NCBI RefSeq assembly: GCF_003334785.1
Contig: NZ_QOWV01000002.1
Source of the DNA: Escherichia coli
GTDB taxonomy: Bacteria > Pseudomonadota > Gammaproteobacteria > Enterobacterales > Enterobacteriaceae
Direction: 5' to 3' (one strand)
DNA length: 64,000 nt
Shown here in pieces: positions 441 through 52,891 of this stretch; positions within the stretch are counted from its first letter, which is position 1, and each line of letters opens with the position of its first letter. Below the pieces are notes generated by a model that saw only the letters and a program-made list of their open reading frames with translations, was not told the origin of the DNA and did no database searches. The translations under genes were made by a program, and so were the position numbers.

Positions 441-497
<57 letters not shown>

Positions 498-2305: not shown

Positions 2306-4321
2306 ATGGCTGAACTGACTGCGCTTCACACATTAACAGCGCAAATGAAACGTGAAGGGATCCGCCGCTTGCTGGTGTTGAGCGGGGAAGAGGGTTGGTG
2401 TTTTGAGCATACTCTTAAGTTGCGTGATGCCTTACCTGGCGACTGGCTGTGGATTTCGCCGCGGCCAGATGCTGAAAACCACTGTTCTCCCTCGGCACTA
2501 CAAACTTTACTTGGGCGCGAGTTCCGGCATGCGGTATTCGACGCCCGCCACGGCTTTGATGCCGCTGCCTTTGCCGCACTTAGCGGAACGTTGAAAGCGG
2601 GAAGCTGGCTGGTTTTGTTACTCCCTGTATGGGAAGAGTGGGAAAACCAACCTGATGCCGACTCGCTGCGCTGGAGTGATTGCCCTGACCCTATTGCGAC
2701 GCCGCATTTTGTCCAGCATCTCAAACGCGTACTTACGGCGGATAACGAGGCTATCCTCTGGCGGCAAAACCAGCCATTCTCGTTGGCGCATTTTACTCCC
2801 CGTACTGACTGGTACCCCGCGACTGGCGCACCACAACCAGAACAACAGCAACTCTTAAAGCAGCTAATGACCATGCCGCCGGGCGTGGCAGCGGTAACGG
2901 CTGCGCGTGGGCGCGGTAAGTCGGCGTTGGCAGGGCAACTCATTTCTCGTATTGCGGGCAGAGCGATTGTCACCGCGCCCGCAAAAGCGTCAACGGATGT
3001 ACTGGCACAATTTGCGGGCGAGAAGTTTCGCTTTATTGCGCCGGATGCCTTGTTAGCCAGCGATGAGCAAGCCGACTGGCTGGTGGTCGATGAAGCCGCA
3101 GCCATACCTGCGCCATTGTTGCATCAACTGGTATCGCGTTTTCCTCGAACGTTGTTAACCACTACGGTGCAGGGCTACGAAGGCACCGGACGTGGTTTTT
3201 TGCTGAAATTTTGCGCTCGCTTTCCGCATTTACACCGTTTTGAACTGCAACAGCCGATCCGCTGGGCGCAGGGATGCCCGCTGGAAAAAATGGTCAGCGA
3301 GGCACTGGTTTTTGACGATGAAAACTTCACCCATACACCACAAGGCAATATTGTCATTTCCGCATTTGAACAGACGTTATGGCAAAGCGATCCAGAAACG
3401 CCGTTAAAGGTTTATCAGCTCTTGTCTGGTGCGCACTATCGGACTTCGCCGCTGGATTTACGCCGGATGATGGATGCACCAGGGCAACATTTTTTACAGG
3501 CGGCTGGCGAAAACGAGATTGCCGGGGCGCTGTGGCTGGTGGATGAGGGTGGATTATCTCAACAACTCAGTCAGGCGGTATGGGCAGGTTTTCGTCGCCC
3601 GCGGGGTAATCTGGTGGCCCAGTCGCTGGCGGCGCACGGCAACAATCCACTGGCGGCGACATTGCGTGGACGGCGGGTCAGCCGGATAGCAGTTCATCCG
3701 GCTCGTCAGCGGGAAGGCACAGGGCGGCAACTTATTGCTGGTGCTTTGCAATATACGCAAGACCTCGACTATCTTTCGGTGAGTTTTGGTTACACCGGGG
3801 AGTTATGGCGTTTCTGGCAACGCTGCGGTTTTGTGCTGGTGCGGATGGGTAATCATCGGGAAGCCAGCAGCGGTTGCTATACGGCGATGGCGCTGTTACC
3901 GATGAGTGATGCGGGTAAACAGCTGGCTGAACGTGAGCATTACCGTTTACGTCGCGATGCGCAAGCTCTCGCGCAGTGGAATGGCGAAACGCTTCCTGTT
4001 GATCCACTAAACGATGCCGTCCTTTCTGACGACGACTGGCTTGAACTGGCCGGTTTTGCTTTCGCTCATCGTCCGCTATTAACGTCGTTAGGTTGCTTAT
4101 TGCGTCTGTTACAAACCAGTGAACTGGCATTACCGGCGCTGCGTGGGCGTTTACAGAAAAACGCCAGTGATGCGCAGTTATGTACCACACTTAAACTTTC
4201 AGGCCGCAAGATGTTACTGGTCCGTCAGCGGGAAGAGGCCGCGCAGGCGCTGTTCGCACTTAATGATGTTCGCACTGAGCGTCTGCGCGATCGCATAACG
4301 CAATGGCAATTATTTCACTGA
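2306..4321 (+). CDS. tmcA: tRNA(Met) cytidine acetyltransferase TmcA
   Basis: 671-aa ORF; Walker-A-like GRGKSAL, C-terminal GNAT-like region; matches TmcA (YpfI) length and N-terminus MAELTALHTL. Confidence 0.9.
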   Translation: MAELTALHTLTAQMKREGIRRLLVLSGEEGWCFEHTLKLRDALPGDWLWISPRPDAENHCSPSALQTLLGREFRHAVFDARHGFDAAAFAALSGTLKAGSWLVLLLPVWEEWENQPDADSLRWSDCPDPIATPHFVQHLKRVLTADNEAILWRQNQPFSLAHFTPRTDWYPATGAPQPEQQQLLKQLMTMPPGVAAVTAARGRGKSALAGQLISRIAGRAIVTAPAKASTDVLAQFAGEKFRFIAPDALLASDEQADWLVVDEAAAIPAPLLHQLVSRFPRTLLTTTVQGYEGTGRGFLLKFCARFPHLHRFELQQPIRWAQGCPLEKMVSEALVFDDENFTHTPQGNIVISAFEQTLWQSDPETPLKVYQLLSGAHYRTSPLDLRRMMDAPGQHFLQAAGENEIAGALWLVDEGGLSQQLSQAVWAGFRRPRGNLVAQSLAAHGNNPLAATLRGRRVSRIAVHPARQREGTGRQLIAGALQYTQDLDYLSVSFGYTGELWRFWQRCGFVLVRMGNHREASSGCYTAMALLPMSDAGKQLAEREHYRLRRDAQALAQWNGETLPVDPLNDAVLSDDDWLELAGFAFAHRPLLTSLGCLLRLLQTSELALPALRGRLQKNASDAQLCTTLKLSGRKMLLVRQREEAAQALFALNDVRTERLRDRITQWQLFH

Positions 4322-5104: not shown

Positions 5105-5190
5105 CCTGGCCTGATAAGACGCGTGAGCGTCGCATCAGGCATCGTTCACCATTGCCGGATGCGGCGTTAACGCCTTATCCGGCCTACGGT
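5105..5190. repeat. BIME (pair of inverted REPs) between convergent ypfH and ypfN
   Basis: cctgataagacgcgtgagcgtcgcatcaggc ... gccggatgcggcgttaacgccttatccggcctacg. Confidence 0.8.
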
Positions 5191-40098: not shown

Positions 40099-40158
40099 CG
40101 GCACTTTTTGGTGAATTTGCACTCCAAGCAACGTTATTGAATAACCAAAGGAAGTGAC

Positions 40159-40745: not shown

Positions 40746-41729
<984 letters not shown>

Positions 41730-41752
41730 GCGTTTCTGATTCATTGATTAAA

Positions 41753-41780
41753 GGCCAGGCAGTAACATTACTGACTGGCC
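41753..41780 (+). repeat. 28-bp hairpin, copy 1 of a direct repeat flanking the yfeX-downstream BIME
   Basis: ggccaggcagtaacattactgactggcc; second copy at 41935..41962 differs at 2 positions. Confidence 0.8.
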
Positions 41781-41811
41781 TCAGATTGTTGACCAAGTGC
41801 GCGTTGTACAC

Positions 41812-41925
41812 GCCGGATGCGGCGTGAACGCCTTATCCGGCCTACGAAATCGTGCTAATTCAATATATTGTGGGCTCCACGTAGGCCTGATAAGCGTAGC
41901 GCATCAGGCAGTTTTGCGTTTGTCA
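41812..41925. repeat. BIME (REP - 24-bp spacer - inverted REP) downstream of yfeX
   Basis: gccggatgcggcgtgaacgccttatccggcctacg aaatcgtgctaattcaatatattg ... gtaggcctgataagcgtagcgcatcaggca; ~90% identical to the reverse complement of 52735..52840. Confidence 0.85.
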
Positions 41926-41934
41926 GCACTCTCA

Positions 41935-41967
41935 GACCAGCCAGTAACATTACTGACTGGCCTTTTT
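41935..41967 (+). terminator. hairpin (copy 2 of the 28-bp repeat) followed by TTTTT; likely intrinsic terminator of yfeX
   Basis: gaccagccagtaacattactgactggcc + ttttt. Confidence 0.6.
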
Positions 41968-41968
41968 A

Positions 41969-43273
41969 TTACTTCTGCTTTAACGCCGCATACACCTGAT
42001 CAACTACCCAACCATAAGTTGCAATCGGCAACTGACCGCTTTCGAACATATTGGGATTCTTTTGCGGATCGGCAACCGGCGAATGTGGCTTGTTGCTTAA
42101 CATCACAATCGTCATATGATTCACCGGATCGATAACGGTCACCGTTCCGGTCCAGCCAGTGTGACCGTAGGTTTGCGGGCTTGCCAGCGTGCCAAACGTC
42201 GGCGTCATGGTGGCATTACCATTCACGCGCCAGCCGAGGCCAAAAGTGGCATCTTCCTTAGAGCTGGTGGTGAACATCTTCACCGTTTCCGCATTGAACA
42301 GCTGCACATCACCATAGCCCCCGCCGTTCAGCATCGTTTGCATTAACACCGCAATATCGCCGGTATTGGAAAACAAACCTGCGTGCCCGGAAACGCCGCC
42401 CATCGAATAAAAGGCTTTTTCATCGTGCACCTGACCCCAGAGAGTGGAGGTGCGGATATTCGGGAAATGGATCACGCCATCGCGGGTATTGCCGTTCAAT
42501 TCCGTGGCGGCAATTTGTTGCGGTTTAAAGCCTTTCAGCAGCGGGTTAAATACCGTATGTGTCAGGCCGAGCGGGCGATAAATCGACTCTTCAACATAGC
42601 GGTCAAGCGGCTGACCGGTAACCGACTCGACGATAAATCCAAGCAGCATATAATCGACATCGCTGTAGATATGTTTGCTGCCGGGCTGATATTCCAGCGG
42701 CGTGCGCTTGATCATCTCCAGCGTCTGGCCTTTATCCTGGGAATATAACGCGCCCGCGACCGCTTTATTCGGGTATTGCGGATCTGCCGGGAAACCGCCG
42801 CTGTGATGCAGCAGGTCAGAAATCCGCAGGGTGTTTTTGCCTTTAATGGTGTCATTTGGACTATCGGCAAACCCCGGAATATATTTCGCAATCCGATCGT
42901 CAGGATGCAGTTTGCCTTCGCTCATCAGCTTTTGCAGGGCGAAGTTCGTGGCGTACATTTTGGTGTTTGAGGCCAGGTCATACAGCGTCCCGGTGGTGGC
43001 TTTGACAGGCTGTTCCATCAACACGCTGCCATCGTACTTTTTCGCCGCTCCCCAGGCTTTGCGATACACAATCTGATTATCTTTAATGATCAGCAGGTTT
43101 ACGCTGGGATAACCGACATCAACTTGCTGGCTAATCCAGCGATCCATCTGGTTAAGCCGTTCGACGTTAAACCCTGCTTTCTCTGGCGAGCTTTCTGTCA
43201 GAACAGGGTATTTTGCGGCGCTGACGCTACAACTAACAGCCAGCAGAGAAAGATAGAGCATTGTCCGTTTCAT
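41969..43273 (-). CDS. yfeW: penicillin-binding protein 4B-like serine hydrolase (class C beta-lactamase fold) YfeW
   Basis: ORF 41969..43360 trimmed to signal-peptide start MKRTMLYLSLLAVSCSVSAA (434 aa); start lies 4 nt after murP stop; exact start uncertain. Confidence 0.8.
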   Translation of the reverse strand: MKRTMLYLSLLAVSCSVSAAKYPVLTESSPEKAGFNVERLNQMDRWISQQVDVGYPSVNLLIIKDNQIVYRKAWGAAKKYDGSVLMEQPVKATTGTLYDLASNTKMYATNFALQKLMSEGKLHPDDRIAKYIPGFADSPNDTIKGKNTLRISDLLHHSGGFPADPQYPNKAVAGALYSQDKGQTLEMIKRTPLEYQPGSKHIYSDVDYMLLGFIVESVTGQPLDRYVEESIYRPLGLTHTVFNPLLKGFKPQQIAATELNGNTRDGVIHFPNIRTSTLWGQVHDEKAFYSMGGVSGHAGLFSNTGDIAVLMQTMLNGGGYGDVQLFNAETVKMFTTSSKEDATFGLGWRVNGNATMTPTFGTLASPQTYGHTGWTGTVTVIDPVNHMTIVMLSNKPHSPVADPQKNPNMFESGQLPIATYGWVVDQVYAALKQK

Positions 43274-43277
43274 GATA

Positions 43278-44702
<1,425 letters not shown>

Positions 44703-52703: not shown

Positions 52704-52734
52704 GGATTAATAGCATCGGAGACTGATGACAAAC

Positions 52735-52840
<106 letters not shown>

Positions 52841-52891
52841 ATAAACAAAGCGCACTTTTTTAACAGTTGTTGCTGCCGACAAATGCAGTAT

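Follow-up and report, generated by a model that had tools for sequence, protein, structure and literature searches.

The spacer between the convergent genes yfeX and yfeW in Escherichia coli K-12 contains a complete BIME-1 element flanked by two direct copies of the same hairpin, and a comparison of alleles determined that the element is present or absent together with one of these copies. The alleles compared show this spacer to be one ancestral A-tract/hairpin/T-tract, a putative terminator serving both genes, into which BIME-1 has been inserted. Unrelated hairpins are duplicated in the same way at other BIME-1 loci, and the loci surveyed show whole-hairpin duplication to be an apparent family-wide signature of BIME-1. 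We consider it likely that BIME-1 integrates by cuts staggered across both feet of a target hairpin, with repair of the resulting gaps duplicating the hairpin.

The yfeX-yfeW intergenic region and its duplicated hairpin

The window, that is, the whole stretch of E. coli DNA analyzed, is 64 kb in length. Within the window, yfeX (40830..41729, plus strand) encodes a porphyrinogen / Dyp-type peroxidase and was assigned from the open reading frame list, its translation and the RefSeq annotation of identical DNA in K-12 W3110; the last base of its stop codon is 41729. The convergent gene yfeW (pbp4b, penicillin-binding protein 4B) occupies 41969..43273 on the minus strand, where a RefSeq CDS of 1,305 nt falls in an open reading frame at 41969-43360 and the stop codon is at 41969-41971. 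The spacer between the two genes is 239 bp long.

Two hairpins, which represent the left and right target-site duplications, were located in this spacer with a repeat finder and RNA folding: copy 1 at 41752..41781 and copy 2 at 41934..41963. Together they form a 30-nt direct repeat with 28/30 (93%) identity and a spacing of 182 bp. Copy 1 has the sequence AGGCCAGGCAGTAACATTACTGACTGGCCT, which is also that of the single hairpin in the empty alleles L001 and L003, and copy 2, with two substitutions relative to copy 1, has the sequence AGACCAGCCAGTAACATTACTGACTGGCCT. A preliminary description of this DNA had reported a 28-bp sequence that recurs with 2 mismatches, and the recurrence is real, as the 28-mer is found twice in the 64-kb window at ≤3 mismatches and recurred in 0 of 100 shuffles. 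The copies match at 28/30 positions in direct register and at 25/30 as reverse complements, and the duplication is thus direct. The K-12 copies differ at 2/30 positions, so the event at yfeX is not a fresh one.

Each copy has a stem of 13-14 bp. Folding of both hairpins, a check that the preliminary description had proposed, gave RNA energies between -11 and -21 kcal/mol over both strands, and the z-scores range from -3.7 to -5.3. Copy 1 folds with -20.4 kcal/mol on the plus strand, where no T-tract follows, and with -19.7 kcal/mol on the minus strand, where it is followed by TTTAAT. Copy 2 folds with -11.3 kcal/mol on the plus strand, where it is followed by TTTTT, and with -20.8 kcal/mol on the minus strand, where the 13-bp stem is fully paired and no T-tract follows. 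The T-tract lies directly 3' of copy 2 on the plus strand (41963..41967), and the hairpin with TTTTT is also seen in single-hairpin alleles. Copy 2 and this tract had been taken for the yfeX terminator, and they are predicted from sequence to be a probable intrinsic terminator. A consensus terminator scan called none because the strict consensus disallows the internal stem mismatch. Copy 1, read on the minus strand and followed by TTTAATCAA, is the distal hairpin of the yfeW transcript. No known RNA family in Rfam accounts for the hairpin, and the REP-derived matches (naRNA4, ES036) are all below threshold.

The BIME-1 element

The DNA between the copies had been described as mostly a REP-spacer-REP BIME. 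The BIME assignment stands but "mostly" does not, since the entire 154 bp is one member of a repeat family. The complete unit (41781..41934, plus strand) was delimited by family identity, by BLAST with a consensus and by its absence as a block, with one hairpin, from empty alleles; each of its boundaries with the hairpins carries a 1-nt ambiguity. It runs from 5' TCAGATTGTTGAC to GTCAGCACTCTCA 3', the right end also being given as GTCATCAGTCTCA, and has the layout Y REP-L linker-Z1 REP. The yfeX element is ~90% identical to its paralogs (e.g. those at fepA-entD and yqjF-yqjG) across 153/154 nt, and each of the 5,426 complete E. coli genomes searched contains such paralogs.

An inverted-repeat search identified imperfect terminal inverted repeats at 41781..41797 (inverted repeat I1) and 41918..41934, both given on the plus strand. 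These cover the outer ~16-17 nt and match at 13/17 positions in the family consensus (P ~1e-5 for 13/17) and at 12/17 in K-12. The internal features, also on the plus strand, begin with a Y-type REP or palindromic unit at 41812..41845 (GCCGGATGCGGCGTGAACGCCTTATCCGGCCTAC), which is supported by inverted repeats I5 and I2, ends in CTAC and has a sub-threshold Rfam match to the REP-derived naRNA4; a REP ending in CTAC is an iREP in the Ton-Hoang nomenclature. The L linker that follows (35 nt, 41846..41880) is conserved among BIME-1 paralogs, has a sub-threshold Rfam match to ES036/CssrF at 41846-41888 and contains a candidate IHF-consensus-like site at 41858-41870, ATTCAATATATTG, with a 12/13 match (1 mismatch) to WATCAANNNNTTR. 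The Z1-type REP at 41881..41909, recognized from its sequence and inverted repeats, is GTAGGCCTGATAAGCGTAGCGCATCAGGC and begins with GTAG. The Y and Z1 typing of the REPs follows the palindromic unit consensus in combination with the published definition of BIME-1.

By that definition, BIME-1 occurs as one unit of ~140 bp per locus and has y and z1 REPs joined by a long linker L, which is conserved and in many cases holds an IHF site (PMC3333891, PMC1187871). The element in the window is alike in having inverted Y and Z1 palindromic units with GTAG/CTAC tags, a long conserved linker, a length in the range of ~140-155 bp and an extragenic position at gene 3' ends. The family is multi-copy and extragenic with one unit per locus, and it was found at >20 distinct loci in Escherichia and gut-metagenome contigs; the exception is the yfeX site of other Escherichia species, where 2-7 units form arrays. 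The element is also MITE-like, with terminal inverted repeats, target-site duplication and filled and empty sites, the last at three polymorphic E. coli loci.

Filled and empty alleles in E. coli

The preliminary description had suggested a search for empty-site alleles that carry a single hairpin and no BIME. Such alleles were found, and ~74% of the 5,426 complete E. coli genomes have one hairpin. The full K-12 arrangement of hairpin-BIME-hairpin is present in 1,401 / 5,426 genomes. Flanks, hairpin and yfeW are present in 3,989 genomes, of which ~1,400 are filled, and the ~2,590 in which yfeX, one hairpin and yfeW are intact and the region is exactly 182 bp shorter were obtained by subtraction, as the junction query joins both half-matches. 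In the same way, the 1,400 matches to an internal-junction query for E. coli alleles with at least two units are the filled alleles counted again, with the half-matches of one-unit alleles joined. The remaining ~1,440 genomes mostly have one hairpin that adjoins a yfeW deletion, e.g. BL21 and Nissle.

The empty alleles L001, L002 and L003 have one hairpin, are exactly 182 bp shorter and are otherwise colinear with K-12 through the left flank, the hairpin and the right flank. In the alleles near K-12 the single hairpin has the sequence of copy 1 and keeps the right-hand flank of copy 2, TTTTTATTAC. The unit gained or lost at yfeX is therefore the element plus one hairpin, which is the outcome expected from target-site duplication. 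The proposal of BIME entry into a terminator hairpin, with a flanking direct repeat as the result, is supported both by these empty alleles and by the same signature with other hairpins at yqjF-yqjG, uidC-ydgA and some eight more loci.

The same signature at other BIME-1 loci

Two further loci are polymorphic in E. coli. The hairpin at yqjF-yqjG is another one, AACGAGGAG-loop-CTCCTCGTT, and in the 78 genomes in which the site is filled it stands directly repeated on either side of BIME-1; the empty allele of K-12 and most other genomes is 178 bp shorter, with ACGAGGAGGAAGCTCCTCGT present once. At the convergent pair uidC-ydgA, AACGCCGGAG-loop-CTCCGGCGTT is present at both sides of BIME-1 in 1,751 genomes. 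In the empty allele, which is shorter by 181 bp, AACGCCGGAG..CTCCGGCGTT occurs once.

Additional loci were found through exact matches to the conserved element ends in species-representative genomes and in a metagenome collection, the scan of which supplied further BIME-1 loci; the sample consists of loci with such matches in a few genomes. At ~11 of roughly 22 surveyed loci a locus-specific hairpin is directly duplicated against both element ends, a tally that takes in degenerate or end-diverged cases (L013/L033, L023, L035 and L115). An anchored ungapped repeat score lies at 12-24 for 6/16 distinct loci, above the threshold of 8; the highest score among 240 mismatched pairs of left and right flanks was 6, and 3,000 random positions had their 99.9th percentile at 8. 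By gapped alignment, 7 of the 15 loci with both termini intact are above the 99th percentile of the null. At all seven, 0-4 nt separate the repeat from the element ends, a distance of 0-2 nt at the six best-preserved loci; most of the repeats fold as hairpins, as do both copies at the five best-preserved loci, with -3 to -16 kcal/mol. The duplications are 16-30 bp long, equal to the hairpin in each case, and all of them are direct; an inverted duplication, such as a fold-back origin would give, was rejected because every pair fits better in direct register. Across many independent loci the BIME-1 element has ends that agree to the nucleotide.

About half of the surveyed loci have the hairpin at one side only or have no duplication. 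Examples with no duplication are fepA-entD, L017, a second BIME-1 in the window (52718-52871) and an insertion in Escherichia sp. E1V33 at a site corresponding to window position 40099/40100. The fepA-entD element is found at the same site in four scanned Escherichia genomes and in 30+ gut-metagenome contigs. The flanks of the E. whittamii locus L030 map apart in E. coli (near rlmC and argG), and no filled/empty comparison was obtained for that locus.

Age and later dynamics at yfeX

The filled yfeX site extends beyond E. coli. E. whittamii (L026) has one unit, Escherichia sp. E1V33 (L034) has two tandem units, Escherichia sp. MOD1-EC7003 (L037 and L038, which are contiguous) has seven units and eight hairpins with a period of 182 bp, and E. 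albertii (L010) has one unit without the right hairpin. The flanking genes of E. whittamii, E1V33 and E. albertii, three of the four non-coli species with MOD1-EC7003 left out, are 90-94% identical to those of K-12, with 96% in one 304-bp stretch of E1V33. The yfeX-site units of the five Escherichia species have common substitutions that are missing from the paralogs, the yfeX-site and paralog letters being GACCAAG / GACAAAG, TACAC / TTCAT and GTCAGCAC / GTCATCAG. Because all units have the same site-specific substitutions, there was one old insertion at yfeX and the arrays arose via local duplication; repeated independent insertions as the source of the arrays are ruled out by the same substitutions.

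E. albertii has lost the right hairpin along with 655 bp of yfeW, and the deletion starts at the position of 41934, the exact right end of the element, as expected if the element ends are processed enzymatically. The filled alleles in four other Escherichia species indicate that E. coli may have reached its single-hairpin alleles secondarily, by precise deletion between the hairpin repeats and not by retaining a never-occupied site. A precise deletion and a never-occupied site would leave identical sequence at yfeX. Salmonella enterica and Citrobacter freundii were uninformative as outgroups, as the DNA downstream of their yfeX is not syntenic and has unrelated terminators. The filled yfeX allele is trans-specific, and no recent, phylogenetically polarized BIME-1 insertion was found among the loci surveyed.

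Once formed, the two 28-bp direct repeats around a large palindrome would act like a minisatellite, which could undergo precise deletion to one hairpin (~74% of E. coli) or tandem amplification (2 and 7 units). This resembles precise excision of the Tn10/Tn5 type, in which slippage takes place between target duplications that bracket inverted repeats. The yfeX site likewise has direct repeats around a large palindrome, and the expected product is the single-hairpin allele; the direct repeats of BIME-1 loci differ from those of Tn10/Tn5 in that they are 16-30 bp long and are themselves hairpins.

A model for insertion and the alternatives

As the length of the duplication follows the length of the hairpin, the most likely geometry is one cut per strand, placed symmetrically at the feet of the hairpin. 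The feet would be 16-30 bp apart in B-DNA and would become adjacent upon cruciform extrusion of the palindrome or its folding in single-stranded DNA. If the feet are brought together only in the extruded or folded form, the choice of target would be structural and not sequence-based, which is consistent with the unrelated sequences of the duplicated hairpins. The 3' ends of the element would then be joined to the 5' ends of the target, and gap filling would copy the hairpin at each side.

The most plausible enzyme for this step would be a dimeric, hairpin-binding Y1/HUH TnpA-REP (RAYT; YafM in K-12) that acts on both strands, an assignment that is speculative. No tnpA-REP gene is present within the 64-kb window, and K-12 MG1655 has tnpA-REP (PMC3333891). 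The E. coli K-12 protein is a Y1 enzyme for which cleavage and rejoining of BIME DNA has been shown in vitro, at C|T sites close to REP hairpins (PMC3333891). Canonical transposition of the IS200/IS605 type by Y1 enzymes uses a single strand and leaves the target unduplicated (PMC3333891, PMC2817692), so a duplication made by a RAYT would need a non-canonical reaction on two strands. The loci do not follow the IS200/IS605-like pattern of RAYT mobility without target duplication, since about half of them have a duplication of 16-30 bp. A more specific form of the model, which we put forward tentatively and regard as less probable than the staggered cuts themselves, is that the structure measures the integration: a RAYT dimer would recognize any stable hairpin extruded from two strands, typically a terminator, and would cut each strand at the same foot, so that the duplication equals the hairpin. 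The inserted BIME would in this case be double-stranded or two-stranded. If true, this would provide the first footprint of REP spread at the level of sequence, and it would explain how REPs build up at gene 3' ends without loss of termination and why precise loss and tandem amplification are concentrated at BIME-1 loci.

Several other explanations have to be weighed against staggered cutting. Hairpins are known sites of replication pausing and slippage, and a replisome stalled at a terminator hairpin could, with no transposase, switch template to a folded BIME-1 elsewhere, copy it from base to base, return upstream of the hairpin and copy the hairpin again. The DNA has properties that would suit such copy-choice: the element and the 226-nt hairpin-BIME-hairpin composite are each long imperfect palindromes with the element ends at the base, the composite can fold as one long hairpin (DNA fold -56.6 kcal/mol, z = -8.2), and the junctions have 1-3 nt of microhomology (T/TC at the left, A at the right). 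We nevertheless regard copy-choice as unlikely, as ends that are exact to the nucleotide at many loci are more typical of enzymatic end recognition than of microhomology switching, flanking sequence of the donor was never co-transferred at the loci examined, and the adjacent deletion in E. albertii begins exactly at the element end. Slightly less probable again is that duplications arose with variable lengths that were independent of structure and that selection retained those of a whole hairpin, by which termination of both neighboring genes was kept. Two of the three polymorphic E. coli loci do lie between convergent genes with a common terminator (yfeX/yfeW and uidC/ydgA), and the differences between copies are mainly in loops or are compensatory (L012), which suggests that both copies are maintained as hairpins; variable duplications of 3-26 bp, as recorded for YPAL in PMC2229807, also fit a filter of this kind. 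Against it, the boundaries of the duplications are 0-2 nt from the hairpin feet at at least 7 loci, no intermediate or partial duplications are seen among the well-preserved copies, duplication-free loci such as fepA-entD persist, and a REPIN duplication rate of ~1e-8 per generation (bioRxiv 10.1101/2021.07.10.451892) would provide scant raw material for selection.

The preliminary description had also raised the reading that the hairpins are independent elements, that is, separate and merely similar terminators of yfeX and yfeW with a BIME between them. Each hairpin does have a U-rich tail for a different gene (TTTTT after copy 2 for yfeX and TTTAAT after copy 1 on the minus strand for yfeW). 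This reading is effectively refuted, and we give it almost no weight, as single-hairpin alleles serve both genes with one hairpin, the 28/30 identity in direct register is without chance expectation, and the pattern is repeated with unrelated hairpins at about ten other loci. The hairpins are best seen as what would have been a single ancestral two-way terminator that was later duplicated.

Comparison with known systems

The element at yfeX is itself no different from the BIME-1 (also RIP or RIB, REP-IHF-REP) that has been described; what is added here is that the unit of presence or absence is the element with one locus-specific hairpin. Presence and absence of BIME-1 between strains is noted in PMC1187871, where Bachellier 1997 is cited and "excision of a whole BIME-1" is mentioned, and in PMC3333891. 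Provisionally, the duplication of a target hairpin by BIME-1 or REPINs appears to be new: no description of it was found in PMC3333891, PMC8266576, PMC3116915, PMC3337134, PMC8049555, PMC3733652 or PMC2884548, a set that does not cover the older primary literature.

In the REPIN-RAYT system, REP doublets are mobilized by TnpA-REP, a domesticated IS200-like Y1/HUH enzyme, and BIME-1 is likewise a REP doublet that can be folded as a long hairpin. Pseudomonas fluorescens SBW25 has tandem repeats of a REPIN with flanking sequence (PMC3116915), and these resemble the 2- and 7-unit arrays at yfeX. The published models for REPIN-RAYT invoke a single strand, no target duplication and integration beside an existing REP or BIME, in contrast to the loci analyzed here, where hairpins other than REPs serve as targets and undergo duplication.

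The YPAL or RU-2 repeats of Yersinia are the closest precedent. They belong to another genus and are classed as MITEs without a link to REP or RAYT, and the likeness to BIME-1 is one of description only. De Gregorio et al. are said to have reported in 2006 that many YPAL targets overlap sequences like rho-independent terminators. According to PMC2229807 (citing De Gregorio 2006), YPAL are ~168-bp palindromic intergenic repeats that are not AT-rich and have no terminal TA. The same source gives 3-26 bp for the target duplications, places the targets across or beside regions of dyad symmetry, and records filled and empty sites between strains.

The geometry also recalls the acquisition of CRISPR spacers. 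Cas1-Cas2 integrates a spacer by two staggered attacks at the ends of a partly palindromic repeat of ~28-36 bp, gap filling duplicates the whole repeat, and repeated rounds or recombination lead to arrays of repeat and insert. The analogy is one of geometry only, as the yfeX site has no cas genes or leader. The "spacers" at yfeX are near-identical BIME-1 units with common site-specific substitutions, and because they are copies of one element the arrays are not successive acquisitions but the result of local tandem duplication.

Probable consequences for transcription, and significance

Flanked by an A-tract and, on its opposite side, a T-tract, the ancestral hairpin would be able to terminate both convergent genes. 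In the filled allele the transcripts of yfeX and yfeW would each pass a first hairpin that has no U-tract, continue through BIME-1 and stop at the distal hairpin, the one followed by a U-rich tail. From this arrangement we infer that termination would be preserved in both directions after the duplication and that both mRNAs would gain a REP-containing 3' UTR, the two being mutually complementary.

The route by which REPs and BIMEs spread has been an open question since their discovery, and the current models are based on the single-strand chemistry of IS200/IS605. A recurrent direct duplication of hairpin length places a hard constraint on models of the mechanism, pointing to two cuts, one per strand, at the feet. 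The signature would account for the location of BIME-1 at the 3' ends of transcription units, its presence or absence between strains and its tandem amplification. For annotation, a "terminator-REP-terminator" arrangement is to be taken as a single insertion event.

Rare alleles of the yfeX site contain IS200C, IS1 or IS621, and the IS621 of E. coli HS is inserted in the Z1 REP directly 3' of GTAG.

Differences between the flanking hairpin copies

Where a BIME-1 unit lies between two direct copies of a hairpin, the copies differ in ways that hint that both are kept as hairpins. At locus L012 (positions 4008-4201), the difference between the two copies is a C-G pair replaced by T-A, a compensatory change, and at other loci the differences between copies fall mostly in the loops. 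In K-12, the two substitutions in copy 2 of the yfeX hairpin (window 41934-41963) result in a fully paired stem in the minus-strand RNA.

Other BIME-1 units, BIME arrays and REPs

A second BIME-1 unit is found on the minus strand at window 52718-52871. The right end of this unit is intact (…GTCATCAGTCTC), the left end has been replaced or truncated, and a flanking hairpin duplication is absent. A left-truncated BIME-1 was also observed upstream of yfeY in Escherichia sp. E1V33 (L034, 2142-2277), at the window equivalent of 40099/40100, and K-12 carries the empty site at this insertion point (aaagaataac|ggcacttttt). Neither a hairpin nor a clear duplication accompanies the E1V33 unit, and thus the direct duplication of a locus-specific hairpin against both BIME-1 ends is not a rule that all insertions follow. 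Isolated matches to the Y-type REP at window 447-481, 5153-5187, 29892-29927, and 29992-30027 are single REPs or portions of other BIMEs. Further tandem BIME arrays were observed in Escherichia sp. MOD1-EC7003, one of 8 units with a 107-bp period (L039, 2652-3545) and one of 3 units with a 130-bp period (L037, 9423-9813); the absence of hairpins between their units suggests a separate mode of amplification.

Insertion sequences and deletions at the yfeX-yfeW site

IS621, of the IS110 family, is the bridge-RNA recombinase element for which REPs are known targets. In E. coli HS (NC_009800.1; L123, 1170-2455), IS621 lies within the Z1 REP of the yfeX BIME-1, directly 3' of the GTAG tag (window equivalent 41884/41885), and both hairpin copies of this allele are intact. 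An IS200C element, of the Y1/HUH transposase family and with a frameshifted tnpA, is present in an empty-site allele (L005, NZ_CP163451.1, 588-1305). The single hairpin of this allele is followed by TTTTT, and IS200C is inserted immediately 3' of that tract (window equivalent 41967/41968), and so a relative of the RAYT superfamily has used the 3' foot of the yfeX hairpin as a target. In one K-12-type allele (L121, NZ_CP024260.1, ~580-1345), a copy of IS1B separates the BIME region from the stop codon of yfeW.

In E. albertii (L010, 1118-1323), yfeW is a deletion remnant when compared with window 41934-42589 and 42792-43102. The start of one E. albertii yfeW deletion coincides exactly with the right end of the BIME-1, and in this it resembles the deletions that arise next to transposons. 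Roughly one in four E. coli genomes, BL21 and Nissle among them, has also lost most of yfeW/pbp4b (window roughly 42010-43270); these alleles (L003 and L004, from BL21 and others, 1519-1605) retain the single hairpin and, at the 3' end of yfeW, ~45 nt.
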